DNA of 63,849 bases, the filler included, from Reclinomonas americana ATCC 50394 (taxonomy: Eukaryota), in assembly GCA_048213135.1 (NCBI GenBank). It is 11 parts of 11 records of this genome, joined end to end, with 100 filler letters (N's around TTAATTAATTAA, not from the genome) between each part and the next. Parts side by side here need not be neighbours in the genome. Positions count along the whole stretch, not along the records: positions 1 to 2,840 come from AFZH01018154.1; positions 2,941 to 6,451 come from AFZH01018155.1; positions 6,552 to 12,596 come from AFZH01018156.1; 8 more parts are not named here. One strand, written 5' to 3'. How positions within the stretch are numbered: the first letter of the stretch is position 1; each line of letters begins with the position of its first letter. The notes beneath the pieces were generated by a model. That model made no database searches. It was given only the letters and a program-made list of their open reading frames with translations, and had not been told where the DNA came from. This document shows positions 1 through 62,746 of this stretch, piece after piece. A program made the position numbers and the translations under genes.

Positions 1-47
<47 letters not shown>

Positions 48-53
48 CACACA
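1..53. repeat. (CA)n microsatellite
   Basis: Nearly pure CA run directly upstream of the WD40 start codon. Confidence 0.95.
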
Positions 54-59
54 CGGAGA

Positions 60-1207
60 ATGACAACCAAGGTGTGAATGTGCGCGCACTTTTGCGTGGT
101 TGGTGTCTGTGCGTACATTCGTGTGTGTGGTTGTTGTTTGTTGTGTTTGTGTGCGCGCCTCACCGCGAGAGATCTACACAGATCATTCAGAGTCTCGCTT
201 CTTCGGTGCGGTCCATCACCGTCACTCCCGATGGCAAGCACATTGTCGGTGGGTGTGGAGATCACACCGTGCGAGTGTGGTCTCTGTCGAGTGGCAAGGA
301 GGTGCGACGACTAGAGGGTCATACTCTAGAAGTGGGCTGTGTCGCCGTCACACCTGATAGTAAGCACATTGTTAGTGGCAGCGGGGACAACACAGTGCGG
401 GTGTGGTCGCTGGCGAGTGGGGAGGAGGTACGCCAGCTGAAGGGACACACTGGTGAGGTGATGTCTGTCGCTGTTTCTTCCGATGGCCAGCACATTGTCA
501 GTGGATGTGGAGACAACGCAGTGCGAGTGTGGTCTCTGGCGAGTGGAGACCATGTGCGACGACTGGAGGCACACACTGGATGGGTGTCATCAGTGGCCGT
601 CTCTCCGGATGGTCAACACGTTGTTAGCGGGAGTCAGGACACCACAGTGCGGGTGTGGTTGCTTGCGAGCGGGGAAGAAGTGCGACGGTTGGAGGGACAT
701 ACTGACTGGGTTATGTCAGTCGCTGTCACTCCCAACGGCAAGTACATTGTGAGTGGCGGTGACGCAGTGTTGGTCTGGTCGCTGGCGAGCGGAGAGCAGG
801 TGCGACGATTGGAGGGACACGTTGAATGGGTGCAATCTGTGGTCGTCACTCCCGATGGTCAGCATGTCGTGAGTGCGGGTGGGGACGGCACAATTCGGGT
901 GTGGTCTCTGGCGAGTGGAGAGGAAGTGCGGCGGTTGGAGGGACACAATGAATGGGTGTCGTCCGTGGCGGTCTCTCCTGACAGTCAGCACATTGTGAGC
1001 GCCGGTGGCAGTGATGACTGGACGATACGAGTGTGGTCCACACCGCGTGGCCTTGCTCGCCTCGAGCTCGACGCCGCGCGCTCGGCCATGCAGGCTGTGC
1101 AGGAGATGCAGGAGGACGAGGAGGAAGTAGATTCTCGATGCCTTCCCGAGCTGGTTCTGCGCTGCTTCATCGTCGAGGATGCCGAGGTCGTCCTTTTTCG
1201 GTGCTGA
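60..1207 (+). CDS. WD40-repeat protein (about 7 repeats), join(60..71,182..1207)
   Basis: Repeated GH-x-V-x-V-x-PDG-x-IVSG-x-D-x-VRVW units. ATG ACA ACC AAG|gtgtga...cctcac...acacag|ATC ATT is an in-phase intron that replaces the ORF-finder's GTG start. Confidence 0.9.
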
Positions 1208-1407
1208 GTCGGTGAGTCGGTAGAGAGGGAAACATTGGCAAGGGAGGGGGCCTTGTGCCGCTGCCACACGTGTTTGTGCTCGACGTGGTTGGACACTAAG
1301 TGGCGGCACTCACTGTTCGCTTGGTGACAGCTGACGCTGATGATACCGAGGCAACACAGTGCCCCGGTCACACGCTGCCGGAGAGTACGCGCATCATGCT
1401 TGAGCGC

Positions 1408-1972
1408 GTGGAGCTCGCGCTCACAGAAGCCGTCGAGGTGAGCGGGGCGGTTCCTCTCACCCTGCTCAGGGCCGCGGCTCGCCGTCGCGGCAGGTGTGCT
1501 CCACCAGACAGTCGATGACGTGGACCGCGATCGCTCGTGGAGCTCGCGCTCACAGAAGCCGTCGACACGAGCGGGGCGGCTCCTCTCACCCTGCTCAGGG
1601 CGGCGGCGCCCCGCAGCAATACGCCTACGCGCCGTCGCCACCGGCATGCGCAGTGGTGCTCCACCAGACAGTCCATGACGTGGACCGCGATCGCTCGTGG
1701 AGCTCGCGCTCACAGAAGCCGTCGACGCGAGCGGGGCGGTTCCTCTCACCCTGCTCAGGGCCGCGGCGCGCCGTCGCCACCGGCAGTGGTGCTCCACCAG
1801 ACTGTCCATGACGTGAACCGCGATCGCTCGTGGAGCTCGCACTCACAGAAGCCGTCACGCGAGCGGGGCGGTTCCTCTCACCCTGCTATTGACAGCATGG
1901 CAGCTGGCGGCCTGCCGCAATACGCCTTCGCTCCATTCCACCAGACGATTCATGATGGCGTGGACCGCGACC
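1408..1972. repeat. GC-rich tandem repeat, 4 copies of a 129-160 bp unit
   Basis: A unit beginning GTGGAGCTCGC(G/A)CTCACAGAAGCCGTC recurs at 1408, 1537, 1697 and 1830. Indels shift the reading frame between copies. Confidence 0.9.
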
Positions 1973-2172
1973 GCCCACTTCGCGTACTACTGGTGGGCGG
2001 TGATGCCTCGTCGCTTGTCGCAGAGACCGCTGTTGAGTGAGCGTATTGAATACTGGCGAAAATGAATACTGGTGTCATGCATGGCTTGCAGCGAGAAAAT
2101 TGGCGCAGCGGCGTATTGAGCGCCTCCCAAAGTGGGAATTTTGTTTTCGCGTTTGTTTGATCACCACAGAGT

Positions 2173-5100
2173 ATGCGTCACGCCTACTGCGTGGCCATCG
2201 CAGCGGCGCTGCTGCTTGTCGTCGCGCCACTGTGTGTGGCGGTGATGCCACAGCACGCTGATGAGGCGACGGACATGGTGGAGCATGGAGGCTGGTCGTA
2301 TCCGGCGGACACTGCGCACGTGGTGGCGGGTCTCCTCTCTCTGCAAACCAGTGGCCCGCTCGACCGCCCGCCGGAGCTGCACCCGGAGTTGCAGTGGCAC
2401 TCGACGCTCGTGACGAGTGGGCACGCGGAGGGTGCGGTTGTGCGAGGTGAAGGTGCATCCGAAGATGGTGTTGATGGCATGGTGCGCGACTTGCACGTCT
2501 CTGCCGCCACTGCGGGCCTCCGTGTGCGCGTCATTGCGCTGCGCAATCATGTGCGTGTGGAGCCGGCCACCACATTGCGCATCGTCGCCATCATCCTGGA
2601 AGTTGCGCGTGGTGTGAGAGATTCGAATATTCGCGTTTTCTGGGGTTTCGTCTTTCGTGCTGTGTGTGGTAATCCCTCTCGCGCACGCGCACTCGCGCTG
2701 TCTTTGTCACTGGCATGCGGATGCTGCGACACATGCTTCGTTTCGGAAAAATAGCGAAACACGCACGTGCGAATGAGCGCCTCTCACTCTCCCCACTTTC
2801 TCTCACACACGCACTTCCTCTCTTTCCCTCTCTCTCCCTCNNNNNNNNNNNNNNNNNNNNNNNNNNNNNNNNNNNNNNNNNNNNTTAATTAATTAANNNN
2901 NNNNNNNNNNNNNNNNNNNNNNNNNNNNNNNNNNNNNNNNCCCTCACTTTGCGCTCCGTGCAGTCGGCGCCCAAGGGGAGCACGATTCATGACATCTCCA
3001 TCGACTATCTTCATGAGGTGAGTGAATGCAATGCAGCGCGTTTCCCTGCCGATCGCATGTGGTTTGACTCGACAATCTCTCTCTCTCTCTCTTGTGTAGC
3101 GCGCATTCCGCGTGATTTGTGATGACGCGGCGGTGGAGCGACTGCGTGAGCGCATGGGCAATGACATTGCTTGGGTTGGTGACTGGACTGCTGCGCTAAA
3201 GGTGGACGAGTCGACCAAGGACGTGGAGGCGCATGTGCGTGCCATGTTGCTGCATCGTGGTGAGAAGTGGGATGATGCGTGGCATTTGCGATCGCGTGCG
3301 TCGCGCTTCATGAAGGACGACGAGACGCTCGGAGACCGGTGGGCGACTGTGCACATTGAGGTGGCGCGTCACCCGAATGGTATCTCGCCAGAGCAGTTTG
3401 CCGAGCGCCTGATGGTCACCTTTAACGAGCACGGCATTCGGGGTGAGTGTGTGTGGCATGTAGAAAGCTTTCAGTACAATGCACTGTGCTGAATCCCATA
3501 CCCACAGCGCGTCTGGCCGACGTGACGGCCGGTGCACATGGCGTGCTGGCGCTCAACTTTGGCGACTTTTACGACATGCCGCGCGCCGTGAGCGCAGTAT
3601 TGTCGCTGCCGAACGTCATGTTTGCTTATGTTGCGTCTCGGTTGTCGCACTGCGTTTCTGTTACCGGCCTGCACTTATTCCCATTCAGATCGAGTCGCCG
3701 ATTGGCGTGCCGGAAGATATTTCTCCAGCCAACTTTATGCCGCAACAGCAACAGCAGCAGCTCCCGACTGCGCCAGTTGCCGCCGATTCCACCAGTGAGT
3801 CGGTCACCGTCACCGACTCGCATGCACACTCCAACATCTCCACGCGCAACTCGTCGGTCATCGGCATTGTGGAATCTGGTACCGTGGGCACCGTGCCTTT
3901 TGTCGGCGTGTTGTCGGGCAAGAACCAGCGTATCGGTGCGCATCTGCTGGTCGTGTGTCACACGATAAATGTTCTGCTAACTCCGTTCTCTCCAGGCATG
4001 AACGTATCCGGCGTCGATTTCTATAACTGCTTCTTCCACGATCCGAACAGTGCAGTCACGTTTAGTGTGCCCAGCACCACAATCACTGGCTCCAATATTT
4101 TCAGCGACACCACAGTCAACACGAACCATCGCAAGGTTTGCCATGCTGCACTGTGTTCTGTGCTGGCGGAGTGACGATGCCTGACTTTTGCTTGTCTCAT
4201 GCTTGCCATGATAGATTCTGGTGTACGTCAACCTTCTCGGTGGGTACGAGTGTTGTGCCTTGTGTCTGTTAGCTGCAGCAATAACTCTCACGCACTCTCC
4301 ACACCTGGTTTTTTGCGTGTTCACAGACAAGTACGATGCGCCATCCCCATCCAACGGCACACACATGGTTTGCTTCTTGACTCGTGGTCTCGCAGGAGGA
4401 CTTGAACTCGCCTCTGAGCTGATCTTGTGCTTTGTGTTGTAGGCTGGTACCATCTCCGGTAATGCCAACGCAAATGACGCGAACAATTTCATCACGGGAT
4501 TCAACGGCATCGCCACCGACGCCAAGCTGATCATTCATGACACCGGCTGCAACGTCACTCCCACCACCGGGTGCACTACGACTTTTTTGACCGGCACTGC
4601 AACTACTCCCCGATACACCAGTGCAACGCTCAACTATGTGATGGGTCACTTGATGTCGGTTCGTACGCCCGCGCTTTGTGTTTCTTTTCGCGGTTCGCTA
4701 ACGTGTTCATGTCGTTCTACGTCATCTGTTACAGAATCAGTTGCGTTTTTCTGTCTTCTCACTCCCTCGCTTCTATTAAATTTACTTTTCTAATTCTCTG
4801 TGTGATTTTGCAGAGCATACATTGTGCTGCATGGGTGAGTCCTCTTTTTCTCTCACATCCCTGTCTCGAATTTCATCGTATTCTCGCCTCTAATTTGCTG
4901 TCTGTGTGCGTGCACAGTGAATCGGCAACATCGAGTGCGTACAGTGCCACCGAGCGTGTGTACGATCACTTCTATGCTGGTAGGCATTCGCCTTCTTCAC
5001 GTCGCTTCAATAGTGGCATGTGATCTGACGAACAACGCAGGCTGTCTCAGTGGATGCTCGGGTACTACCGCCGTGCAAAACTACCCGGATGCCACGGTGT

Positions 5101-8100
5101 GACTTCTGTCACTCTTGCTCATTCTCGCTTGCTCTCATCACTCACGCAATGCTGCATACTTCTTTTATTAGAACATGCTCGGCATTGTCAATCCGGGAAA
5201 CGTCCCGTGGAACGGTGCCAGCTTTGCGACATTCGGCAGCACCGTGCGTGGCATTGGTATGCTGAAGAACTCGCTTACGGTGGGCGCCAGTCGTTCGAAC
5301 TACAAGCAGAACTACATTACTGGCGTCGTGTGGACACCCGTTGAGTCGATGTGCTCGTGTGTGCCTGACTACAATTCGGTTTGTGGGTTTTTGACAAAGT
5401 TGACGGTTTCTTTGTGCACAGGATGACATGGCGTACTATTCCGTGCCAGGTCTGGCGCAACTGTGCGTAACATTACTGTGTCGAGCTTCTTCTCACATTG
5501 TTCTGTCGCACAGGCCCTGCCGGTGGATATACTTCGAGCGTGCCGATTGACGGACGTTACGGAATCCAAGTGGTGGCTCCGGGACAGGCCGTCCGCTCTG
5601 CGTTTGCGTATGACCAGTCGCTTGCGCCGGACACAAATATGTGTGGATCTGGAAGTCGTACAGGTTCGTCGCACGTAGTGCACACTTGACCATTTGTATG
5701 TGGTAGCTCGGTTCTTACCGATAGCGAATGCGCAGTTACCAGCACCAACGTGTGCAAGCATGTCGGTCTGGATAACGACGCAGCGTGCAATGCGTCACAG
5801 CGCTACTCCATTGCCTCGGAGTTCCCGCCCACTGCTGCTGTTGCCGGTGTTGCTGGTGTGTTTTACAATGCGAAGCTGACGGTGTACAATGCCTTCTGAA
5901 TCATGGTCCCATGCGCAGCTCTTCTCCGCGAGTACCTGACAACGAGCTATCCGATGGCGCCCAACGCCAATGGCACAAACGCGGTGCCATTCACCAAGCC
6001 CCCGGCGTCACTGATGCGCGCTCTGCTTATCAACTCTGCCGATCGTCTGCCTGACACCGGCTACTATGGAGGCGATGCCAGTAACTCCGCCAACAGCCCA
6101 CCGACAAACATCTTCCAGTACCAGATTTCGACTCTCACCGAGTTGCAAAAGTCGTACCTGTTCGGTCAGTGGTCGTGTCACCTTTCTATTCTATTTTTTA
6201 CCTTTGTTTCCCCCGGCTTACGTGCGCACAATCGACGGTGACCGCAGGATACGGTCTTGTGAAGCTGAACAACATTCTGTCCCCGAACTCCGTGTCGCCG
6301 CGCTCGTACGCACTTGAAGCTGAGGGCTCCACGATCACCGCAGTCGACACAGTGCAATGGGCGACTCCGTTCTCATTCACCAACGGCTGCATTTACAATT
6401 TCATCCTCACCGGCACTGCGAATGTTGCGTTTTGCACTGTGATGAAAAAAANNNNNNNNNNNNNNNNNNNNNNNNNNNNNNNNNNNNNNNNNNNNTTAAT
6501 TAATTAANNNNNNNNNNNNNNNNNNNNNNNNNNNNNNNNNNNNNNNNNNNNTTGCCGCTCACTGCTGACTGTCGCTTCGTGATGTGTGAGCAGCTTCGCA
6601 TGACGCTGGCGTGGACTGAGTTCGGCAATGTGTCTGGTACAATTGCAATCCTCAAGTTGCGTCATTTGTCTTCTGCGCTCCGCGCGTTGTGATTCTCCAA
6701 GGCAGGCTGATCGATTTCGTTTGTGTGATGCAGTGATTTGAACTTGGTGCTGGTGCGCGTCGATAATGGCGTCGAGACGCTGGTGCAGATCGGTAACGCA
6801 CTGACTGGCTTCCCGACGAGCAATACCGTGAGCGGCTCGGCTGCTATTATGGCCAACACCGACACGCGTAACCTGGAGGAGCGTGTGACAGTCACCAATG
6901 CAACCGCGGGCACTTACCGCGCCTACGTCTACGTTGCGTTATCCTTGTCTCACACGTGGATCACGTGACTCTATAGGCTCACATGTTGTCATTGTAGGCG
7001 CGCATTCTGCCGTCGACCCCCGGCGTCAAGTTCTCACTGGCCATCACGGCAACTGCAAACATTGCTGGTGCGTGTTTGTTGCCCGCAAAGTAGTGGGCAC
7101 CTGTGTGGTTCACGCTGATGACATGTTTTGGTGCAGTGCCGCCGTTTGGGTTCTCGAACATTGCGAGTGCCGTGGTCGGCAACCAGTGCTCTGACATCTC
7201 AGTGGTGCTGAATCACCCGCTTCACGACGGTGGCGTGTCTCTCGACGGCAAGAGCGGCATTCAAGCGCGTGGGTATGTCATGCTTCTGCACGCACGCGCA
7301 AGCACACTGCCTTGAGCTCATACGTGGACTGCTGTGCAGCATTCGCATCTACCGGTCCAACGACGAGAGCACCTCGCTTGGCGACAAGACCGACACATCG
7401 AGTCTGAACGCAAGCCAGTCGACGTTTACAGCGTCTGCGGCTGACATTGCGGCGGGAACGTGAGTGCTCTTGTACCGTGTACTGATCGTTTGAATCCTCG
7501 TGCTGACCTACAATCGTCATGAAAACGTGTGCACAGAATCTACATCAAGTCGCTGTTCACCAACACACAAGGACTCACCAGTGTGTTTGGCAAGGCTGGC
7601 AACATTTCGTCAAAGGGCACGTTTGCGGCCGTCAACGGACCATATACATTGTATGCTGGTGAGTTGATTCACTGTTGCCATCCTCAGCAGTGCGCCACCT
7701 GCCAGTCTCATTCATGCTCGTGCGTACACTGATAGATGAAGCACCGGCTTGGGATGCTGGAATTTCGTCGTCGACGTTCAGTGCGCCATCGACTGCTAAC
7801 CAGCTCGTTGGCACGCTGACTGCACCGGCGCAAGCATCAGCGCCTGTCACGTGGAGTGTCGTCGGCGGAGCCAACCAGTCGTCGTTTACGGTCGCCAATA
7901 CGAATGAGCTGCGCTTGACTGCTGCCAATTTGGCGGTCGGGACGTACACGATCATTGTGCGTGGTATCGACAACAGCAGCAAGTGCTTCACGAAGACGTA
8001 CACGATTACCGGCTCAGGTGCGGTCTGCATCTATGCACACACTCGTTTGCTCATGTGCCACTCACGACTGTACCCTCTGCTGCCACACAGCAACCGTGGC

Positions 8101-10162
8101 TCTCACCGTCACCAACGTCACGCCGACGTCTGTGATTGGCAACAACGCGACCACGCTGAATCTGACAGGCACGACACTCGACCAGCTCACGAGCGCGGTG
8201 CTTATTGCCACCAACGGCAGCTGCACCACCGATACGCCCACCAACGATGCGTCGGTGACGGCATTGACAGTAACGGGCACTGCTTCGACCACCGCCACGC
8301 TGTCTGCCACGATCTCGCAGAAAATTACGCTGAAGGTTCACTTAGGGTTGTGCAGCTTGGCGTGCTCATGTTGCCGTTCGAGATGGCTGACTTTTGAGTT
8401 CCTTTTTGTTTTTGCAGTTGTGTGTCCAGCAGAACAAGAGCACGTGGCTAGACTCTGGATTCACCGTCGCGTCCGTCATTAGTTGAGTATCTCCCTGCTG
8501 TCAATCGTGTTGTTCGTTGGGCTTGTCACTCAACATGTGCACTCACCTGACACAGTGACTGTGACGAATGTGACCCCGACGTCGATCATCGGTAACAATG
8601 CGACGGCTGTGAATCTGACTGGCACTTCATTGAATCAGCTGACAGCTGTGCGATTGGTGGCAAGCAACGGCACGTGTACTGGCTCGCCGACGAACCACGC
8701 TGCTGTGACGAATGCGTCGATCACTGGCACACCGGCATCGACCTCGGCGGCACTGTCGGTGACACTGTCACAGAGCATCACACTGAAGGTGAGTTTTAGA
8801 GACACTTGATTGTCCACTTGCGTTCATGCTGACGTGATGTCTCCTCTGTGCAGTTGTGCGTGCAACAAGGCAGTGCAGTGTGGATCGACTCGAAATTCTC
8901 GATCACGTCCACGATCAGTAGTTGCGTGACTGATTGGTTGACGAAACTGAAATAAGCATTCTTTTGTGTTTCGTGCGAGCGTGCGACAACTGGTGCCATG
9001 ATGGAAAGGGCGAGATTGTGTGTGTCTCTGTCACTCTTGTTCGTTTGCTTCTTGCTGTTTGCATCTGACTGTCATTCCCACTCTGCCCTCTCCCTCCCTC
9101 TCCCTCTCTCCCTTTGTCTGTTGTCTGTTACCCTCGCTATTTTTCTCTTTCCTTCTCTCTCTCCCTCCCTTCCCTCCCTTTCCTCCCTTCCCTCCCCTTC
9201 CCTCCCCTTCCCTCCTCTTTCCTCCCCTTCCCTCTCTCCCTTCTCTCCCTCTCTAAATCTCACTGGTGATTGCACGTACAGAGGGAGGTGGCATGTGCAC
9301 AACAACGCCTGCTGCTGTCGCTCACGAGTCGAAGCGCATTTGGTGGTCGGTCGCCTCCAACGCCGACGGCAGCAAGCTGGCAGCCGTGGTCGAGTTCGGT
9401 CGTATCTACATCTCCACCGACTCGGGTGTGACGTGGACGCCGCACGAGTCGAACCGCTACTGGGTCAGTGTGGCCTCCAGCAGCGACGGCACCAAGCTAG
9501 TGGCCTGCGTGTACTGTGGCGGTCAGATTTACACCTCGACGGATTCCGGTGTGACGTGGACTCCACGTGCGTCGGTGCAAGCGTGGTCGGCAGTGGCCTC
9601 CAGCGCCGATGGCACCAAGCTGGTAGCCGTGGCTTTCAGTGACTCAATCTACACCTCCGGTGACTCTGGGGCGACGTGGACGCCGCGTGAGTCTCATCGT
9701 CAGTGGGTCGCTGTCGCCTCCAGCAGTGACGGCACCAAGTTGGTGGCCGTGGTGAGTGGCGGCCAGGTATACACCTCCACTGACTCGGGTGCGACGTGGA
9801 CAGCACGCGACTCGAATCGCCCGTGGGTAGCAGTGGCCTCCAGCAGTAATGGAGCCAAGCTGGTGGCCGTCACCCACGGTGGCCAGATCTACACCTCTTC
9901 GGACACTGGTGCGACGTGGACGGCACGCGAGTCGGCGCGGTTGTGGCGGTCAGTGGCCTCGAGCAGCGATGGGTCGCACCTTGTGGCCGTGGTCGGGAAC
10001 GACAAGATCTACACCTCCGCTGATTCCGGTGTGACGTGGACGGCACGAGAGTCGGATCGAAACTGGTTTGCGGTGGCCTCCAACGCCGACGGCAGCAAGC
10101 TGGTGGCGGGTGTGTACGAGGGACAGATATACACCTTGGATCTCAGCGCCTGTCTGGCGTGA
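2173..10162 (+). CDS. Secreted multidomain S8 (KP-43/TagC-like) subtilase homologue, probably catalytically dead. Order: signal peptide, prodomain, S8, jelly-roll, cadherin-like, 2 IPT-like repeats, BNR beta-propeller (about 30 introns)
   Basis: Spliced translation gives LSGKNQRIGMNVSGVDFYNCFFHDP, NGTHMAGTISG, NPGN...KNSLTVGAS, DGRYGIQVVAPG, AVAGVAALLREY, PPASLMRALLINSA, FGYGLVKL, LRMTLAWTE...ILNDLNL and NLEERVTV...AGTY, all KP-43-family motifs in order. A phase-1 splice from 8920 to 9282 joins the propeller exon. The link from exon 1 crosses an assembly gap and is less certain. Confidence 0.8.
2841..2940. other. Artificial scaffold gap linker (N44-TTAATTAATTAA-N44), first of ten
   Basis: Identical 100-nt linkers occur at 2841, 6452, 12597, 19119, 20955, 26928, 43370, 49818, 53711 and 62747. 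Most abut low-complexity tracts. Confidence 0.99.
9341..10138 (+). repeat. Six full plus one partial 40-aa BNR/Asp-box repeats (7-bladed propeller), intronless
   Basis: Unit W-x-x-VASSxDGxKLVAV-x-x-GQIYTSxDSGxTWTxRES contains the Asp-box S-x-D-x-G-x-T-W. Confidence 0.9.
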
Positions 10163-12596: not shown

Positions 12597-14486
12597 NNNN
12601 NNNNNNNNNNNNNNNNNNNNNNNNNNNNNNNNNNNNNNNNTTAATTAATTAANNNNNNNNNNNNNNNNNNNNNNNNNNNNNNNNNNNNNNNNNNNNCCCC
12701 TTCCCCCCTTCCCCCCTTCCCCCCTTCCCCTTTCCCCCCTTCCCCCTTCTCCTTCCCGCTCACCCTCCCTTTCCCTCTCAAAGGCCTTCTTCCCCACCCC
12801 CTCCGGCACCCTCATCCCGGCCTTCTTCGTCGAGTTCGACGCCACTACCACCACCACCGCCTCACCATCCGTCTTCCGCTTCGTCATCGCGAGTGATTCG
12901 TGGAACGTGCTCGAGTCGGCCAACCTCACCGCCAGTGAGACCTTCAACTACCGCGTGTGGGCGCGCACCGACGGCGACAAGCTGCCGGCCGACGGCCCCA
13001 CGGAGGACTGGACTCCGCACCCCACCGGCATGCCAGACGGACTGTTCCCGGCTTTCGTACCGCCGTCGCTGGTGTCAATGGACTCGTTCAACAAGTTTAA
13101 CGATCCGTGGCTGCCGTCGGGTGCCACTGAAACGCGCGGCAACAACGTTGATGCATACGCAGACCAGGCAGACCCTGACGGGTTCAGTCCCGGCGACCTG
13201 CGCGCTGCCGCTACTTCGCCAAACACCTTTGATTATGTCTACGACGTGACGCAAGATGCGCTGGCGTCGCAGACTCAGACCATGGCCGAGGTGACGCAGC
13301 TGTTTTACGTCACCAACTTCCTGCACAACTACTGGTACGACTCCGGGTTCGACGAGGCGGCCGGCAACGCGCAGGACGACAACTACGGTCGCGGTGGCGT
13401 GGGCAGTGACTCGATGAAGGCGGAGGCGCAGGACTTCGGCGGTTTGGACAACGCCAACATGTCGACTCCGTCTGACGGCATGCGCCCACGCATGCAAATG
13501 TACTCGTGGTCTGTCGGCAACTCTGGTCACGTGCAGGTGACGCCGCCGGGTGTGTCGTTCGTGACTGGCTCGGCAGAATTCGGTGCAATCAAGTTTTCGG
13601 TTCGTTGCAATTTCATGTCGTCCACACACTTGACTCCACTCACGCACACGCGCAGGTGTCAGCGCCGATTGTGGTGGTGACAGCCGACCCCTTGGCGTGC
13701 TCGCCCATTGTGGAGAATGTAACTGGAGCCATTGCACTAATCCGGCGAGGCGGGTGCTCGTTCCAGATCAAGGCTTTCCTCGCTCAGCTAGCGGGTGCCG
13801 TCGGCGTGCTGATCGTCAACACCACCGATGTCGCGAATATGTTGGGCGTGGACGAAACTTTTCCACCTGGATTGGTGACCATACCGACGGCTTCGATCGG
13901 CAAGGCCGACGGCGACGCACTGGTTGCCAACATCAACAGCAATGGAACAGTAACTGGAGAGTTGGTTTCACCGAAGCTGCACGCCGGATCGCTGGATACG
14001 ATCTGCATGCACGAGTGGGGCCACTACTTCCATCACCGCCTTGCGCAGTGCAGCAGCAGCCAGTGTGCCTCCATGTCGGAGGGCATCGGAGACTTTGTGT
14101 CGCTGCACCAGGTGGTGCGTGAGGGCGACAACCTGGACGGAACGTATGCCACCGCCATCTACGCCCTCAATGACGCGTACTTTGGCATCCGACGTCTCCC
14201 ATACTCGGTCGACAAGAGCAAGAACCCACTGACCTTCAAGTATATCTCCGACAACGTGCCGTTCCAGTTCACCCCGCCGGTGCCCATTGGCCCCTTTGCG
14301 AGCAACGGTGCATCGAATTCGGAGGTCCACAATGCGGGCGAGATCTGGGCAACTGCCATGTTTGAGGTGAGCTGGGAGGGACAAATTGCGCAGGGAGAAA
14401 TCATTCCTTTCCGCTCTCCCTCTCAATGCGCCTCATGCTTCTCGCATTCCTTCACTTCTATTCGCCCACTCTCTCTGTCTCTCTCG

Positions 14487-14520
<34 letters not shown>

Positions 14521-17500
14521 GTCTCTCTGTCTCTCTGCGTGTGAAGTCTGTCTGTCTCTTTCTCTCTCTCTCTCTCTCTCTGTCTCTCTGTCTCTCTGCG
14601 TGTGAAGTCTGTCTGTCTCTTTCTCTCTCTCTGTCTGTCTGTCTGTCGTCCGGTTTCCTCCCTCCCCTTCTCCATCTACTCACTTCTGCCCCTCTTCTCC
14701 TTCTGCAGGCCTACATTGGCCTGCACAAGAACGCCCACGGACGCACGTTTGCACAAGTCAAACGCGCCATGGCCGACTACGTGGTGGCCGGCCTGTTGAT
14801 CACACCAGCTGAGGCCACATTCACACAGCAGCGTGATGCACTTGTGGTGGCAGCCAGCGTTGTGAACTCGGCAGACGCAGCGACAATGGCCGCGGCATTT
14901 GCTGTGCGCGGACTTGGTTAGTGTTGCTTGTTCTTGTCTGCGAGTCTTGCGATGTGCATGTCTGATCGCTGTCCGCGCTCAGGTGTGTGCGCGGTCTCGC
15001 CGACGCAGTATGACAACTCTGATGTGATTGAGTCGTTTGACGATGATTGGTCCAAGTTCAGTATTGTGGTGGACCAAGCGAGCGTGGAAGAGGGTGCTGT
15101 GAATTGCAATCACGACGGCGTTGTGGTGCGTGCGTTCATTGTTGCATCCGACACCATGCGTTCTTCCCACCAACTCACTCTCTCTCGTATCTGTGCACAC
15201 ATGCTCGCAGCAAGCCGGTGAGGACGGTGTGGTGCGAGTGGTTGTTCACAATCCCCAATACTATACCGGGAGCAACACAATGACGGTGACGCTCGTTGCG
15301 AATCCCAGCACACCTGCCGATGTCAAGTTTGCCACACTGTCCAAGGTCGTCGCTGTGCCGTCTGCTGGACAGTCGATCACAGTCGAGTTCCCATTCCACC
15401 TGGCGTCAACGTCGCGCAATCCGATTGCACTGGAAGGCAACTTGTCGATCACCGGTGGCAAGGCATGCCGCGAGGTGGGTAGCTCGTTCGCCGATCTCAT
15501 CGGCGTGGAGTACGCGCCAGCGCAGTCGGCGACAGAGGATGTGAACTCGCCGTTCGCCAAGCAAGTGTGGACGGCGGGAGGCACCGCGTTGGCGTGGTCG
15601 TTCGTCGGGATTCAAACTGGTGACTCAGCATTCTACGGCCAAGACCTCGGTGTTATCAGCGACACTTGGTTGCAGTCGCCGGCTGTGACTGTGTCCAGTG
15701 ATCCGACAAAGCCTCTCGTAATCTCGTTTGACCACACGTACTCGTTTGAGTCCGACGCGTCTGCGGCATACGATGGCGGCGTGGTGGAGATTTCCAGCGA
15801 CGGTGGAGCGACGTGGAATGATGTCTCGCAATGGGCGTCGGTGAGTGCTTGACTGAAAGGAGACGAAGATGAGAGGAATGGGTCGGAGGAAGGAAGCGGA
15901 GTGTGTAGCAAGAGAGAGAGACACGTACATACGATCTAGCGAACCAACTGTTCTGCTTGCCAAATGGCACTCACTGTCTCTAATACTGCGCAGCCTTCGT
16001 ACACTGGTGTGATCTTCGTTGGAGCGGATAACCCGCTGTCGAACCGGCCGGCATACGGTCGCTCTATATTCCCCACTTTCAACCAGGAGACTCTTGACTT
16101 TGGGCAGGCTTTCGCAGGTGCAGGAGGGGGGCGTGCGCTGTGCAAGTGCTGTTCATCCGCTAAAATGTGCTTCCTGCGTCTCCTTCCGCACATTCAGGCA
16201 AGACGGTGGCAATCCGCTTCCGCATCGGGACTGACCAGGCGGGGTCAGATATTGGTTGGATCATCGACAACATTGCCTTCGCGGGGATCACCAATACTCC
16301 GTTCGGAGCACGCATTCAGCCAAAGTGCAGTGCCTGCTCGTGCCTGCATGGCACGTGCCAGGCCGACAACACATGCAAGTGCAACTCGGCGCACTGGACC
16401 GGTGTGGATTGCGGATCGTGCGCCGGTCACTGGACCGGTCCCACGTGCAGCGTGTGCTCGGGATGCAAGAACACGGAGACGTGCCGCGACGCAGATGGAG
16501 CGTGTGTCAATCCGACGAGTTGCGCAAGGGAAGGGGTCACCGAGGGTGGTGAAGGGTGGATGATTGTGACTGACTCTGCGTGCAGATGGGTTCTGTGAGA
16601 CGGACATGCACTGCAACTGGAATCACCTGAGCATCAATGGTGAGAGGAGGGACAGGAGTGGGGAAAAACGAAGAGAGAAAAAGAGGTGCAACCCTGAGAG
16701 TGAGGAGTGTCGAAGAATGAGGCAACGAGAAAAGACTGTCGGAGGTGCGAATGAGGTTTTGGGGGTGACAGAAAGCGATGAGAGAGAGAGAGAAGGATTT
16801 GTGATATGTGCGTGAAAAAGCTTGATAGATCAAGTGCATGAGGAGACTGCGAAGACAGGGAACAGAGCCTGGAGGTGCCATGATGAGCGGTGAAAAGGGA
16901 TGAAGTAGTCTGATGAATCAAGCATGATGGGTGACTGTGGAGAATCGGAACAGGACATGGGATCGTCGAAGACTGTCGTGAGAGAGAGAGAGGGAGATGA
17001 GATGAAGCAGTCTGATGCATCAAGCAAGGCAGGCGATTGTGGAGAGAGAACTGGAAATGGGATTGTAGAAGACTGTCTGCATGTACACACAGAGAGAGAG
17101 AGAGAGAGTTAAGACGAGTGACAACGGATGCCGGAGGAAAAGGATGAGACGAAGTTGTCGGATGTGATCGCAGTAAACTAGACAAGAAGGTGCGAGAGAA
17201 ATGGACAGTGAGAGAGTGATGGAGGAGTATGGTGGGGTGCAATGTGTGTGGCCTGGTGAAATCTGAGAGTGAAAGAGGCTGTTTCTCACGGTGTCTGTGA
17301 CATTTCTCTGCGCGCAGGCAACACTCAACCAGTGACCATTGGCAACAAGTCGAGCCTCAGCGGATACTGCGTGCTGACGAGTGGCCAGTCGTCTGGCAAG
17401 TGTGTGTGCTTGTCTGGCATTGGTGGCAAGAACTGCCAGGTGCGTGAAGAGAGAAAAGGGGTGGTGGCGACAGCAACGAACTGCGTCGTGCGTTTTGATC

Positions 17501-54478: not shown

Positions 54479-57400
54479 ATGTCAGGTGGCACTCGCGATC
54501 GACTCCTCCGCTGGCTGTGCGTCGTCGCACTGCTGTCACTGGCAGTGTTGAGCAGCACTGCAACAGCCGCAAGTGAGTCCACCTTAAAGCACACACACGC
54601 ACGTGCACAGCACAGCACAGCACACGAACATTTGTGAGTGTTCTTTGACTCATTCACGTGCGCGCACTCTCTCTCTATGTGCGGTTCACGCGACTGTCTC
54701 TCAATGCTGCTCGTGTGTGAGCGTGTGCGTGTGTGTGAGAGAGAGAGAGAGTGAAAGTCTGCACATACAGTGCGTGTCTCCATCATCATGATCGTGTCCG
54801 CAGCAGCGCGCTCTCGCAGTATTTTTTTACGCGTCCCCTTTTTCTCTCCCTCTCTCCCTCTTGTGCTCCTCCCCTTTATCGCCCCATTCACAACTGCGAT
54901 AGTGCCCTCTATGCTTTGCGTGCTTTTTTTTCGTGCGAAAGACGACCGTTGAGACTGCATGCACATCATCTTCTCATTTTCGCGCCCATTTTTTGTTCTC
55001 TCAGCGGTCGTCTCGCCGGCCAACATCGCCATCAAGGCCGGCACCGCTGGCCAGATTGTCAACATCAATGTCCTGGGCTCGGCGATTGCCTGGTCGCCTG
55101 CCTCCACGGCCACTCTCTTCCTCGACCGCTCGTGCATGGGCGTGTCGCCGACCACTGTCGTCAACTCCAGCACCATCTCCGCTGCCTCGCTCACCTTCAC
55201 TGCGTCGGGTGATGGCAACGGCGGTGAGCGCTACCTGTGCATCGACGTGGACGGTGCGGGCGCGGCCGCGCGCAACGAGTTTGTGGCCACTGTGTTTGTC
55301 TGTTGCGTGCATGCATTCTCTTTCAATCACATCGCAATCATCATCGCCGCCTCATTGACTCTCCCGGCTTCCTTCCCATCCACGCAGACACCCTTGGTTC
55401 GCAGAACAAGTCGCCGCAGCTGGTCAATGGTCTTGCCGACTTTCGCCTGACGGTGACTGGCCAGCACTTTGCCAATCGCCAACTGGGTGCTGGTGGCGCG
55501 TTTGGCCTGTACTCGGCCGCGGATTGCAGCGGATCGCCGGCTGCAAACTCGAGCGTGACTCTGCAGGCCAGTGATCCGGCTGGCCTGCACATTGACTTCT
55601 CGGTGGCCACTGGTGCATCGTTTGCGCAGGGCGCTCTGGGTGTTACGGCCGCCGGCTCGTGCACACTGGCGTCGCCGGGCGTGTACTACCTGTGTGGCAA
55701 GTTACGTTCATTTGAGGGAGAGTGAGAGAGAGAGAGAGAGGGCGCTGACATTTCTGCTGTGTTCTGCAATCACCTGAGCACTTCACTCCCTTTCGCGATA
55801 TGTATGTTTGTCACACCTTCATCTGGTGTGTCGGCTTTCTCTCTTACCCTCATTCTTTCCGTCTTCGCCTTGTTCTTCTCCCTCTTATCCTTCCCTCGCC
55901 TTCACCTCACTTCGCTCATCATTCTTCCCACGTCCAGGTTCCAGGCCGGTGGCACCGCTGTGTACCGCCTGCAACCCCTCCCACTCATCGTGACCGCCGC
56001 CTCGTCGACTCCTGTGGTTTCCTTCGCTGCTCCACCCGTCCTCAAGTACGGCAAGGCCAACGCGATTGTGATCGGCTCCTCGGCTTACAATCTCACCGAC
56101 TGCACGAGTTTCAAGCTGGTGCCGGCCGGCTTCGATTGCGCCACTCTGTCGGACTACTCGACGCTGACGGGCAGTGTGGGCGCGGTGTTTGTGCGCGGTG
56201 GCGCCGATACCTGTCAGTTCGCGACTGGCTGCCGCCTGTTCCGCGCGACCATCACGCCGAACGGGTCGGTTGGTGGCGGTGCATACAAGTTGTGTGTGGC
56301 GGCCAACAACGGACCGTACATGTCGTCGTCGGAGGCGTTCACCTCCGGCTTCATGACGGATGGTGGCCTCGGTGCGAGTGGCCCGATGCCTGCATCGACT
56401 CCGTTGGCCACTGACGATACCACTACCAAGCCAAGCATGTCAACGCTGGCAGTGACGGCAACCACGATACAGTTCACATTCGCTCGCGAGTTCTTCCGCC
56501 GCCCGCGCGTGTTGCTCGGCTTTGCCAGTGTCGGAAGTCAGCAGCCTGCCGGAAGTATTTCCACTCTTGCCAACGAGCCGAGTGATGGCACGTTTGCATT
56601 CTGTGCGGAGCCGGTGGTGACGGTGTCGCAGCTGTCGACTCGATGCTATGGCGTGTCGACTGACCGCCGACCGGGACCCACCATCACGCTGAGTTGCGTT
56701 CATGATGGAGGGAAAGGTGTGAGTGAAATGTGACTCATCAGCTTCCCTCTGCTTTGCTGCAAATGCAGGCTACCTGGCGTACTATGTGCATCAGACGAAT
56801 GCCCTGTCGATGGATGGTCAGCGCACGCTGACAAGCAAGGCATGGGCGTCGGATGCAGTGAACAAGAACGGCTCGACTGTTGCGTGTTGGTTTGACCGTC
56901 GCCGTGAGCCAGCCTTGGACGCTTAATCACTCTTGTCCACTCTGCACAGCTGGTGAGCGTGTCATCCGCGTACCAGTTTGCGTCGGTGCCAGCCATTCCA
57001 GTGGCCGTCATTGGCGTGCTGTCGATGCGCCAGTCGGCTGCCGGCAACGATGAGCGCGTGCGCGGCGATAATTTTTCGGTGACCAGCAGCTCAGCCTCAC
57101 GCTCCAGCTTCGTCATCAAGGGCACGGTGAACGGCGACTCACGCATGGAGGCTGTCTCTACACGCTTTGCTGTGGCACCGACACGCCCCGACAACACCAA
57201 CAACAGCGGATTCGTCATGCTGTCGGGTGGTGCGTCTCATCCTCCCCTTTGGTTGGAGTGACATCTTTTTGCTATTTATCTGACCCCTTACGTGTGGCAC
57301 AGAGACGACGCACACCAGCACTGCGACGATGCAGACAGCCAGTCTGGTGACTTCGTCGACCCCCAACGGCCTTCTACGTGCCACCATCAGCGTGCAGCTG

Positions 57401-59998
57401 TTCCTGCGTGGGTGGAAATCGTCGGCAATCAGTGTGCAGAACCGGATCGACCAGCAGTCGCTGCAGTTTATCACCAAGCGCCTTGGCAACGAGGACTATG
57501 TGACGGCGATCTCGTACAACGCCAGCGGGACCGACGCATCGGACATTGAGTATGTGACGTGGGTGGCGATTGGTCGTGCTGCGCAAGGCGCACCGATCTC
57601 GTGCCCTGCCGGCTACAGCGGCTCCAACTGCGGCGTGTGCACGCTGCCCGACGGTACCACGACGTGCTCACTGAACCGACGCGCCGTGCTGAGCTGCGCC
57701 TACGGCACAACCCAGATCGTCGCCCAGTGTGCCGAGGGTCGCGAGTGCTTCGAGGCGTACGGCTCGGCGCAATGCGGATGCTCGGCGAACGGTGCTGTGT
57801 GCTCGAGTGGCGGTGACTGCTGCTCTGGTAGCTGTGACTCTGGGCTGTGTGTGGCCGTGTGCATTGCGAATGGCGGCAGCTGCTCTGCCGACGAGGAATG
57901 CTGCTCGGATAGTGTGTGCACCTACGGTACCTGTACTGTTTCGTGCAACCCCGCCACCACGTGCTCAGGTCACGGAACATGCAACATCGATGGAACGTGC
58001 CAGTGCGACACTGACTACTACGGTGCCTCGTGCAATGTGAACTGTGTGGTGGCCACGACCTGCTCGGGCAATGGAACCTGCAAGAGTGACGGTACGTGTC
58101 TGTGCACTGGCGACTACACCAATGCGAGCTGCAATTGCAGTCCCACGACAACGTGCTCTGGCAACGGAACATGCAATACCGATGGAACCTGCGCGTGCAA
58201 CAACAACTACTTCGGTGCCACATGCAATGTGAACTGCGTGGCGGGCACCACATGTTCTGGAAATGGAACGTGCAACAGTGACGGGACGTGTCTGTGCACG
58301 GGCGACTACACCAATGCCAGCTGCAACTGCAGTCCCACCACCACGTGCTCGGGCAATGGAACCTGCAAGAGTGACGGTACATGTCTGTGCACTGGCGACT
58401 ACACCAATGCGAGCTGCAATTGCAGTCCCAGCCTCACGTGCTCTGGCAACGGAACATGCAATACCGATGGAACATGCCAGTGCAACAACAACTACTTCGG
58501 TGCCTCGTGCAATGTGAACTGTGTGGCGGGCACCACATGTTCTGGAAACGGAACGTGCATGAGTGACGGCACGTGCCAGTGCACTGGCGACTACACCAAC
58601 GCTAGCTGCAACTGCAGTCCTTCAGCCACATGCTCGGGTCACGGAACGTGCAATAGTGACGGTACGTGCCAGTGTACGGGTGACTACACGAATGCCAGCT
58701 GCAACTGCAGTCCCAGCCTCACGTGCTCTGGCAACGGAACCTGCAATACCGATGGAACATGCCAGTGCAACAACAACTACTTCGGTGCCTCGTGCAATGT
58801 GAACTGTGTGGCCGGCACGACCTGTTCGGGCAACGGAACTTGCAAGAGTGACGGCACTTGCCAGTGCACGGGCGACTACACCAATGCCAGCTGCAACTGC
58901 AGTCCCACCACCACTTGCTCTGGCAACGGAACGTGCAAGACTGACGGCACATGCCAGTGCACTGGCGACTACACCAACGCTAGCTGCAACTGCAGTCCTT
59001 CAGCCACATGCTCGGGTCACGGAACGTGCAATAGTGACGGTACGTGCCAGTGCACTGGTGATTACACGAATGCCAGCTGCAACTGCAGTCCCAGCCTCAC
59101 GTGCTCTGGCAACGGAACATGCAAGACTGACGGTACGTGCGAGTGCAACAACAACTACTTCGGCGCATCTTGCAATGTGAACTGTGTGGCGGCCACCACA
59201 TGCTCTGGCAACGGAACATGCAAGAGTGACGGCACTTGCCAGTGCACTGATCCCATGAACCTCAGCAGCAACTGCTGTGTGCCCAGCTGTTCTGGCAAGG
59301 CATGCGGTAGTGACGGTTGCGGCGGATCGTGTGGCGCGTGCGGTTCCGGTCTGCAGTGCAATGCGTCGTTCCAGTGCGAGTCGGCGTGCGTGCCCAGCTG
59401 TGTCGGCAAGACGTGCGGCAGTGACGGGTGCGGCGGATCGTGCGGCTCGTGCACCGTCGGGGACTTGCTCATCTCCGAATACGTGGAGGGCACCAGCAAC
59501 AACAAGTACCTGGAACTCTACAACAACAGTGCCTCTGCCTTGGACCTCAACGACTACGAAGTGCGATTGTTCTCCAACGGCGCTTCTGCTGCAACAGCGA
59601 CTGTGCAGCTGTCGACTCTTGCTGGCTTGCCCTCAACATCATTGGCGTCGGGAGGAACTCTCGTTCTGCGTAACGGGTCGGCCGCACTGACGTTGCCGGG
59701 CGGTGTTGTGGCGTACACTAGTTCAGTCATCAATTACAACGGCGATGACGCCATTGGCATCTGGAAAAGGTCGACGTCATCATACGTGGACATCTTTGGC
59801 GTCATTGGACAGGACCCCGGTACTTCATGGACTGCCGGCTCACTCACCACGGTCGACAAGACGCTGCGCCGCAAGTCGTCTGTCCTTTCGGGTGTCACGA
59901 CGAATCCATCCTCGACATTCGCGACGCTAGCGACGGAGTGGGATCAGTTCAATGTCGACACCGCATCTGGCCTCGGCTCGCACACAATCACCGGGTAG
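54479..59998 (+). CDS. Secreted mosaic protein: beta-rich N-terminus, H-type-lectin-like domains, Cys knots, 14 EGF-like repeats, 2 CxPxCxGKxCGxDGCGGSCG repeats, C-terminal lamin-tail (LTD) domain
   Basis: Signal peptide RLLRWLCVVALLSLAVLSSTATA. F..EF.RRPRVLLGF and YVTWVAIG are lectin-like motifs. The 2.7-kb intronless last exon carries LLISEYVEGTSNNKYLELYN...NGDDAI...DIFGVIGQDPG...TLRRK...EW...SGLGSH. Confidence 0.85.
57944..59276 (+). repeat. 14 tandem 31/33-aa EGF-like repeats
   Basis: C-x5-CSG(N/H)GTC-x2-DGTC-x-C followed by either TGDYTNASCN or NNNYFGASCNVN. Confidence 0.95.
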
Positions 59999-60680: not shown

Positions 60681-62746
60681 ATGTCGAGCATGAGGATTGT
60701 GCTCTTTGTGGTGTGCCTCCTCATTGTGATGGCGAACGTGGTACTGGCCATGGTGCAAGCTCAAGGCAAGTGTTTCCTATATCGGCAGCTCGCGTCTCAT
60801 TGGCACTCATTCATGCTCTTTCGCTCATATGCACAGGTGGTACATGTACCACAACTGGCAACGAGTGTGGAGTGAATGTTGCGTGCACGTGGCTTGGTTT
60901 CCGTCGACATCTTTTCACGAAGAATATTTTGTAACTCCTTGCATGTTCAACCCTGCTCCCCTTTTTACTCACTCTCTCTTCCGCGCAGGGCTACTGTTCT
61001 GCCGGCAAGTGCGCGTGCCACAACAACTGCTTCACCGCCACCAACGGTGCCAGTGTTTGCGCCACGTGAGTCTCCTGCAGCAAGCTACGTGGACACGACA
61101 TCCCCCCACTCACTCACTCTTCTCCCCTTCTTTGCCGAACAGCTGGGCGGGTCCGTTCTGCTCGTGCCACCCGTTCGTGACGTGCTCGAACAACGCGGCC
61201 TCGTGCACTAGCACCGGCGCCTGCGTCTGCAGCGCAGGCTCCTTCGGCACCAAGTGTGACCAAAAGTGCTCGCCCGCCACCTGCAACAACAACGGCACCT
61301 GCAGCGCTGCTGGTGCCTGCCAGTGTAATGTCAACTATTACGGAGCCACATGCAACGTCTTCTGCAATCCGGCGACCACTTGCAACGGCAACGGGACCTG
61401 TAATGCGAGCGGTCAGTGCGTGTGCACCGGCAACTTCACTGGCGCCTCGTGCAACCAATGCAAGCCGGACTACTACGGTGCCACGTGCAACGCCCTCTGC
61501 AACCCCGGCACCACCTGCAGCTACAACGGCAGCTGCAATGCCAGCGGACAGTGCGTGTGCCTCGCCAACTACTACACCGCCAACTGCTCCAAGTTCTGCA
61601 CCGCCGCCAAGACCTGCTCCGGCAACGGCACGTGCGACGCAAATGGCCAGTGTGTGTGCACCGGCAACTTCACCGGCGCCTCGTGCAACCAGTGCAAGCC
61701 GAACTACTACGGGGCGACCTGCAGCAAATACTGCAGCGCGGCTATCACGTGCAATGGTCGCGGAACGTGCGACAGCACCGGCTCATGTGTGTGCTCCTCA
61801 AAGAACTGGACGGGCACGGCGTGCGATCAGTGTGCCGCCAACTATTATGGCGCGAGCTGCGAGAAGTTCTGCCAGGTACGTGCGTGTTAGCGGTGGGAGA
61901 GGACTGGGATGAGGAGAAAGGAGATTAGTGAGGACATAGGCACTCAAGATAAGATTGGTGTGAGTAGTGGCTGTGAGTGGATCTGGAAACGCAACGCTGC
62001 AACCATGTATTGCAGTGGAGATGGTGGGTGGAATAGCAGTGGAGTTGTAAGAATGCACGCAGAGCGGTGGTTATCGTAAGGGAGACTGAAGAATGGAGTG
62101 GACAGCAGTGCGATGCTAGCTTCAGTTATTTCCAACCGCTCACCTCTTTCCCATGCATAGGCTGCTACCACCTGCAGCGGAAATGGCACTTGCTCCAGTG
62201 ACGCCACCTGCGTGTGCAACGCCAAGTACTACGGCACTTCATGCTCCGTCTTCTGCGACGCGGCTGTCACCTGCAGCGGCAACGGCTCGTGCGACATCGC
62301 CAGCGGCAAGTGCACATGCAAACCAGGCTTCGACGGCCTGTATTGCTCACTGCCGCGTTCCCCTTGCACTGTGCACGCGGACTGCCTCTCCGCAACGGCT
62401 GGTGCCAAGCTGAGCAACGGGCAACCCATCAATGGCGGCCTCTGCGTGTCTGGCTTCTGCAAGTGCAATGCACCCAGCAGCGGCGCGCACTGCGAGTGCA
62501 TTGCCGATCCCGGTCGCTGCTCGGGTTTCATGTCGTTTGCGCGCTTCAGCACTCCGGATGGCCGCTTTCTGGAATGCAAGTCCACGTGCTCTGGGAACTA
62601 CACCAACTGCAGTCCCAATGCCACGTGCTCTGGTCACGGAACGTGCAAGGCTGACGGCACATGCCAGTGCACTGGCGACTACACCAATGCCAGCTGCAAC
62701 TGCAGTCCCAGCGTCACATGCTCTGGCAATGGAACATGCAAGACTG
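60681..62746 (+). CDS. Secreted EGF/laminin-EGF repeat protein, 3' incomplete (runs into gap)
   Basis: Signal peptide MSSMRIVLFVVCLLIVMANVVLA, followed by many CxxxGxCxxxGxCxC...YYGATC repeats across in-phase exons. Confidence 0.88.

Follow-up and report, generated by a model that had tools for sequence, protein, structure and literature searches.

The window analysed here is a stretch of 63,849 nucleotides (nt) from the Reclinomonas americana ATCC 50394 assembly GCA_048213135.1, in which ten linkers of 100 bases (N44 + TTAATTAATTAA + N44) connect the contigs within 64 kb. On its plus strand, between positions 2173 and 10162, lies a subtilase-like gene with many introns, whose predicted product carries a unit of family S8 resembling the KP-43 protease, with the catalytic Asp and His replaced by other residues. 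A sequence-only reading of the same DNA had described all three residues of the catalytic triad as substituted in an intact gene and had proposed a maintained pseudo-protease repurposed for binding, adhesion or scaffolding. The gene model was built by manual splicing and then checked by script. The subtilase-like region is found in the contig at 2941-6451, and the gene extends into the neighbouring contigs. Its features are as follows.

2173-10162, plus strand: whole gene, 31 exons, 5169 nt coding for 1722 amino acids, stop codon TGA at 10160-10162.
2173-2601, plus strand: exon 1, start codon and hydrophobic N-terminus, signal-peptide-like by translation (MRHAYCVAIAAALLLVVAPLCVAV...), no Pfam match.
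2964-3935, plus strand: exons 2-5, long N-terminal stretch preceding the S8 unit, last ~80 residues propeptide-like by eye.
3996-4135, plus strand: exon 6, Asp-site motif GMNVSGVD with Val402.
4327-4367, plus strand: exon 8, His-site motif SNGTHM with Asn463, continued by AGTISG in exon 9.
4735-4739, plus strand: candidate 5-nt microexon AATCA, which puts exons 11 and 12 in frame.
4814-4834, 4835-4917 and 4918-4979, plus strand: exon 11, intron and exon 12, the sole junction that does not close in the family frame with canonical sites.
5172-5378, plus strand: exon 14, GIVNPGN with the oxyanion-hole residue Asn597, and LTVGAS.
5736-5855, plus strand: exon 17, Ser-site region RYSIASEFPPTAAVAG with Ser740 (TCC 5807-5809), Ser743 (TCG 5816-5818) and Phe745 (TTC 5822-5824).
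6248-7067, plus strand: exons 19-22, C-terminal beta-jelly-roll (LRMTLAWTEF, AILNDLNLVLV, AGTYRAYVY), family profile positions ~320-470.
7736-8017, plus strand: exon 26, PKD-like Ig domain (PF22352 K319L-like_PKD, E 1.2e-5, 25.7 bits, slightly short of the cut-off of 27).
8091-8920, plus strand: exons 27-30, two copies of a ~100-residue module (TVTNVTPTS.IGNNAT..NLTGT... and LCVQQ...), no Pfam family.
9282-10162, plus strand: exon 31, BNR/Asp-box beta-propeller of the Sortilin-Vps10 type.
2602, 3630, 4740, 6424, 6656, 6933 and 8921, plus strand: GTTGCG donors, all at proposed exon ends.

All 30 introns of the model have GT-AG borders, and the spliced coding sequence of 5169 nt contains no in-frame stop, against 52 in each of the other two frames. 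The guanine-cytosine (GC) content at third codon positions (GC3) is 0.705 over the whole gene versus an intron GC of 0.50, and 0.677 in the S8 part versus 0.481 in its own introns. The introns measure 43-101 nt, except for one of 361 nt and two with assembly gaps inside them (2602-2963 and 6424-6593). Splicing out 3936-3995 restores the family spacing G.GQ.VAVAD.G. The hexamer GTTGCG was a recurrent donor, since all seven of its plus-strand copies within the gene stand at proposed donors, and at two of them (6656 and 6933) the family sequence continues perfectly over the junction (AIL/NDLNL and YVY/ARILP), which fixes the site. Window-wide, this hexamer occurs 74 times against 58.8 expected, a count that was reached in 2 of 100 shuffles. 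At 8482, GTTGAG acts like a GTTGCG donor. The 361-nt intron (8921-9281) is by a wide margin the longest without an assembly gap and is filled by a CT-rich, microsatellite-like tract at ~9080-9255.

No single exon was recognisable as a subtilase, so family membership was tested on the spliced product against a family profile. Pfam found no S8 match in the 11 stop-to-stop open reading frame (ORF) translations spanning the exons, and phmmer searches of the PDB with exons 14 and 18 returned chance matches only (E 0.1). For the references, 105 prokaryotic loci were retrieved by means of a degenerate version of a short subtilase motif, and their ORFs were cut out. The profile sample consisted of 39 prokaryotic KP-43-type ORFs carrying all three catalytic motifs, from which a 24-sequence alignment was also made; compared with this alignment by hhalign, the Asp-site and Ser-site exons reached a probability below 1%. 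The four references that were tested all matched PF00082 (122-177 bits), and three of them had a weak PPC (PF04151) match downstream, below the Pfam cut-off. The best solved match of the 24-sequence alignment was the KP-43 protease 1wmd (E 1.4e-165). The reference consensus comprises Q.VAVAD.GL, HGTHVAGSV, GARIH.NSWG, F(S/A)AGN.G, DGRIKPDV.APG, GGTSMATP..AG and LVNDLDL.

When the spliced domain was compared with the 39-sequence profile, it scored 88.7-95.9 bits (E 7.6e-29 to 4.9e-31), and the full-length model scored 92.6-93.1 bits, with a maximum of 5.0 bits over 500 shuffles. Similarly, when the whole window was cut on both strands into 1956 stop-to-stop ORF pieces, the top five profile matches all fell in the subtilase-like gene and were collinear with the profile (4443, 5172, 5471, 5900 and 6729). 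The alignment begins at the Asp motif and extends over the beta-jelly-roll (LRMTLAWTEF, AILNDLNLVLV, AGTYRAY), corresponding to positions 18-439 of 533. Significant similarity was therefore found across the whole catalytic domain, and the alignment continues over the C-terminal, PPC-like jelly-roll. Among the 55 reference columns conserved at 90% or more, 34 were kept, including GTH, PGN, VGAS, DGR, APG, GYG and NDLNL. As judged from this similarity, the predicted spliced protein is a KP-43-type S8 homologue.

The motifs present in the gene are GKNQRIGMNVSGVD at the Asp site, SNGTHMAGTISG at the His site and RYSIASEFPPTAAVAGVAALLREYL at the Ser site, and the reading frames give GMNVSGVD, NGTHM/AGTISG and ASEFPPTAAVAG. 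The codon coordinates reported in the sequence-only reading were right, as in the spliced frame GTA 4004-4006 encodes Val402, AAC 4353-4355 encodes Asn463 and TTC 5822-5824 encodes Phe745. The replacement of Asp by Val, which as GTA needs two base changes, was reproduced by hmmsearch, hmmalign and MAFFT --add, all of which placed Val402 in the Asp column, with GKNQRIGMNVSGVD aligned to G.GQ.VAVAD.GLD. The same three alignments put Asn463 in the His column, with SPSNGTHMAGTISG aligned to ..GHGTHVAGSV.G and the second His of HGTH kept, in agreement with the proposed change of His to Asn. The gene thus lacks the catalytic Asp of D[TS]G and the catalytic His of HGTH. The oxyanion-hole Asn, which had been described as retained, was indeed found as Asn597 in GIVNPGN (AAC 5199-5201) by both hmmalign and MAFFT. 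A domain that has lost both charge-relay residues, Asp and His, would be unable to work as a classical serine protease.

The third substitution, from Ser to Phe, was seen in one register and not in the others. Phe745 occupies the Ser column when residues are counted back ungapped from the conserved VAG. HMMER instead placed Pro746 there, with a one-residue deletion and a low posterior, and MAFFT set RYSIA against GTSMA, which brings Ser740 into the Ser column, followed by a five-residue insertion, SEFPP. Deleting SEFPP in silico raised the profile score by 7.2-8.7 bits, roughly what such a gap would cost, and the scores therefore do not tell the registers of the Ser site apart. In every register the G and T of GTS are replaced, as are the M and A except in the MAFFT register (Ile, Ala), and at least three GTSMATP positions differ. 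Given the geometry of subtilisin, an insertion of five residues, two of them prolines, immediately behind the Ser would shift that Ser off the start of the helix.

The all-frame scan of 2941-7100 revealed no usable D[ST]G, HGT or GTS in alternative frames or exons. The candidates that it turned up were rejected. The out-of-frame AMIDSGV of exon 7 (4205-4225, IDSG at 4214) and the out-of-frame RHTHG of exon 8 (4340-4370) can not be joined in frame, stand at the wrong profile position and were attributed to chance, and two in-frame DTG triplets, at 4539 and 6053, do not fall at the Asp site.

These data bear on the idea that the gene encodes a working protease, in which D, H and S come from overlooked exons or registers or Ser740 acts with other residues. 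The position of Ser740 (RYSIA) in the nucleophile column of the MAFFT alignment, the gain of 7-9 bits upon removal of SEFPP, the retained oxyanion Asn and the gaps in two introns would all agree with it. We nevertheless regard such activity as extremely improbable, as each of the three alignments shows Asp and His replaced within ungapped, well-anchored motifs (VSGVD and NGTHMAG) and the scan offered no alternative motif in the right place. Furthermore, the gapped intron 6424-6593 lies after the catalytic domain, with the profile alignment continuous over it, and SEFPP with its two prolines would displace Ser740 from the start of the helix.

The 4834/4918 junction is the one place where canonical sites fail to close the frame of the family. 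Both sites are strong there (a GTGAGT donor in exon 11 and the exon 12 acceptor at 4917), but joining them directly leads the SIHCAAW frame (family RIH.NSW) into TGG TGA and 16 stops. This model, M1, was rejected because the frame breaks. The candidate microexon at 4735-4739 would repair the frame with an acceptor at 4734 that scores 5.9 (true-site median 6.1; equalled by 9 of 266 decoy AG) and a GTTGCG donor at 4740 that scores 6.1 (median 4.5; equalled by 8 of 589 decoy GT). It splits a 155-nt intron into 76 and 74 nt, within the usual 43-101 nt of this gene. The resulting protein reads ...NQAYIVLHGESATSS... and scores 88.7 bits against the KP-43-type profile. By comparison, a non-canonical acceptor at 4919 (model M4) or a 1-nt assembly error would give SIHCAAWESATSS (SIHCAAW+ESATSS) and 95.9 bits, and in-frame retention of the 84 nt (model M3) gave the lowest score, 83.9 bits. 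The earlier statement that no disabling stop exists is consequently correct under the microexon model, which has no in-frame stop, and fails with canonical sites in the absence of the microexon. The triad result is unaffected by the choice of junction, whereas the description of the gene as intact is conditional on it.

Two further explanations depend on this junction. In the first, the locus is a recently dead, unprocessed pseudogene and the 1-nt problem at 4834/4918 is a real frameshift. The stops that follow the canonical junction would fit such a lesion, the advantage of 7.2 bits for SIHCAAW+ESATSS over the microexon reading (95.9 vs 88.7) would suggest an ancestral frame that is now broken, and the searches that were run found no relatives. 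However, it would be a single lesion in 31 exons and 5169 nt, in a gene with 30 of 30 GT-AG introns and 52 stops in each of the other frames, and GC3 in the S8 part still exceeds the intron GC (0.677 vs 0.481). At neutral rates, a change of the motifs as heavy as this one should have left many stops over 5 kb. In addition, the acceptor and donor of the microexon are both good, and a 1-nt assembly error is plausible because the assembly is a gapped draft. Decay of this kind seems unlikely to us, although the junction problem keeps the pseudogene as a real alternative.

In the second explanation the gene is functional and the draft assembly, being of low quality, contains errors, so that SIHCAAW+ESATSS is the true reading, the microexon is absent and perhaps some of the substitutions are errors too. 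The ten contig joins of the window and the top score of the non-canonical model (95.9 bits) are in its favour, and a 5-nt microexon is a priori rare. Against this, the splice signals of AATCA score like true sites, the seven GTTGCG copies of the gene all serve as donors, and an undivided intron of 155 nt would stand apart from the other 25 introns without gap or microsatellite, which measure 43-101 nt. Errors would also not explain three separate catalytic substitutions that involve several base changes. We consider this explanation quite unlikely.

The rest of the protein places the S8 unit in a large modular context. The N-terminus (MRHAYCVAIAAALLLVV...) is hydrophobic and is followed by ~370 residues before the S8 unit. 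Exons 2-5 matched no Pfam family at E<=1 beyond chance level, and the propeptide likeness of the region that precedes S8 is presumptive. The S8 unit and jelly-roll together occupy approximately residues 371-1005, after which a linker leads to the PKD-like domain. Exon 31 passes the Pfam gathering scores for both PF15902 (50.8 bits, cut-off 33) and PF02012 BNR (29.8 bits, cut-off 27), with partial coverage of the Vps10 model (positions 2-131 of 446). The protein contains 23 N-x-S/T sequons and 24 Cys and has no internal hydrophobic stretch of at least 17 residues. Overall, it has the look of a secreted adhesion or ligand-binding glycoprotein. As a separate observation, the repeat modules derive from an internal duplication (8091-8481 vs 8556-8920) in which two exon pairs share the intron phase and the type of donor after LCVQQ...

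Searches for relatives gave matches for the propeller and none for the S8 part. Word-index protein searches with exon 18, the ORF of exon 18 and exon 16 had no matches, and in metagenome contigs exons 18 and 14 had 486 and 186 pattern matches, respectively, none of which was confirmed. A HMMER search with exon 31 retrieved 34546 proteins at E<=0.001, with up to 69% identity, and an S8 domain stood beside the propeller in none of the best 150 of these 34546 relatives. In the window, tblastn with exon-region translations (10 of 13 in the correct frame) gave self-matches only and no paralogue, and Rfam had no matches. Absence from the searched collections says little for a eukaryote.

Other features of the window were noted alongside the subtilase-like gene.

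2-1204, plus strand: intron-free stretch encoding a seven-repeat WD40 propeller (PF00400, 239 bits), preceded at the window start by a (CA)n tract.
1300-2040, plus strand: repeated unit of ~45 residues (…LVELALTEAVD.SGA.PLTLLRAAA…) in several frames.
12697-14918, plus strand: next gene downstream, predicted fungalysin-type metallopeptidase (PF02128 M36, 123.5 and 86.2 bits on two ORF pieces), also with a PA domain (61.8 bits).
57284-59995 and 60730-61887, plus strand: long ORFs with teneurin-type EGF repeats and a lamin-tail domain, and with DSL (Delta/Serrate ligand), EGF and laminin-EGF domains.

The occurrence of the ~45-residue unit in several frames suggests that the DNA separating the WD40 gene from the subtilase-like gene contains a tandem repeat. 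The ORFs at 57284-59995 and 60730-61887 appear to be additional extracellular genes of the adhesion or signalling type.

Altogether, the locus is probably a real, intron-rich gene for a secreted multidomain protein, in which the KP-43-type S8 unit is catalytically dead and was most likely retained as a scaffold or peptide-binding module. The call of a pseudo-protease made in the sequence-only reading was supported, given that Asp and His are missing from each of the three alignments and that the GTS signature is degraded in every register. Its description as maintained had indirect support from the open frame over 31 exons, the 30 GT-AG introns and the GC3 bias, and was weakened by the 4834/4918 junction, which needs a microexon or a 1-nt correction, and by the searches, which found no orthologue. 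As a candidate for the pseudoprotease class, the gene shows the fold signature together with the loss of Asp and His, and its intactness depends on the 5-nt microexon. That so many motif positions changed while 5 kb stayed open and codon-biased would point to maintenance after the loss of activity.

Several observations weigh against this interpretation. No single exon was significant in Pfam, PDB or hhalign searches, and the family assignment relies on manual splicing and a locally built profile. Moreover, 11 of the 55 conserved columns (DGRIKPDV.APG) are invariant through the selection of the references, because these were fetched with that motif. The losses affect 21 of the 55 columns and are not statistically concentrated on the triad, since random placement would include all three catalytic columns among those lost with a probability of ~0.05; the case for a dead enzyme thus relies on the roles of the lost residues. 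The 4834/4918 junction is closed canonically only via the candidate microexon and otherwise carries a 1-nt frameshift, and the family frame SIHCAAW+ESATSS, although 7 bits better, requires a non-canonical acceptor or a 1-nt correction. The gaps in introns 2602-2963 and 6424-6593 could conceal sequence. Finally, single-exon, short-word and local-profile searches found no orthologue or paralogue.

If the S8 unit is indeed a pseudoenzyme, it would have kept the structural core of the fold while catalysis was lost, and the dead domain may have been kept as a folded scaffold or a peptide-binding module. Its host would be an extracellular binding protein composed of a propeptide-like N-terminus, which could not be removed autocatalytically, a PKD-like domain, two Ig-like repeat modules and a Sortilin-Vps10/BNR propeller. 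We infer that the protein is made, is maintained by selection and binds rather than cuts. The suggested repurposing for binding, adhesion or scaffolding would fit the domain context and the precedents of CspC/CspA and PIMMS2. In sortilin, the propeller fold binds propeptides and peptide ligands. A bolder proposal, which we hold to be a long shot, is that the dead subtilase and the Vps10/sortilin-type propeller form one ligand-handling device, in which the former substrate groove would hold the protein's own uncleavable propeptide or foreign peptides and the propeller would provide a second site, the whole acting as a lineage-specific secreted sorting or adhesion receptor derived from a relic protease.

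For annotation, the gene is not to be counted as an active peptidase, and gene models in the Reclinomonas americana genome may have to allow for the GTTGCG donor, and perhaps for microexons, if their frames are to be preserved. The fusion of a dead protease to adhesion-type domains could help to show how such domains are reused for binding.

MEROPS contains many S8 'non-peptidase homologues'. A literature search for subtilase 'non-peptidase homologues' listed no paper on protists. The closest likeness is to the KP-43-type subtilases (S8A; 1wmd, Bacillus KP-43 protease), with which the gene has in common the order and spacing of the S8 motifs and the C-terminal beta-jelly-roll (LRMTLAWTEF, NDLNLVLV), and the KP43 cluster has been reported in eukaryotes too (PMC6713707). 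Unlike them, this gene has Asp and His replaced, a degraded GTS, 31 exons and long loop insertions, and its S8 unit belongs to a protein of 1722 residues with a PKD-like domain, repeat modules and a BNR propeller. The propeller itself resembles those of Sortilin/Vps10 and BNR proteins, as exon 31 matches PF15902 and BNR and shares up to 69% identity with the propellers of large multi-propeller proteins; these proteins differ in that neither a 10CC module nor a transmembrane tail was seen here.

Two pseudoenzyme systems offer functional parallels. CspC and CspA are subtilisin-like pseudoproteases that act as germinant sensors in Clostridioides difficile (PMC7200643, 10.1101/461657). They have a subtilisin-like fold, have lost catalytic residues and play a sensor or regulator role, but they come from bacteria, where they are soluble proteins of the spore belonging to the Csp clade, and they have no accessory domains. 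The likeness is functional and not one of subfamily membership. Plasmodium PIMMS2 is a surface protein involved in cell invasion and described by its authors as a potential pseudoenzyme, with orthologues that lack one or more triad residues (PMC5520436). Like the protein predicted here it is eukaryotic, surface-exposed and subtilisin-like, and it lacks the HGT and GTS motifs (PMC5520436). In contrast, PIMMS2 was modelled on SUB1 and not on KP-43, has a transmembrane domain, retains D, H and S in P. berghei and has another architecture with no propeller. Subtilisin-fold pseudoenzymes are therefore already known, and what is new here is another member with an unusual domain partner, the case being otherwise ordinary. 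It would lengthen the short list of subtilisin-fold pseudoenzymes, formed by CspC/CspA and PIMMS2, by a eukaryotic case of the KP-43 type.

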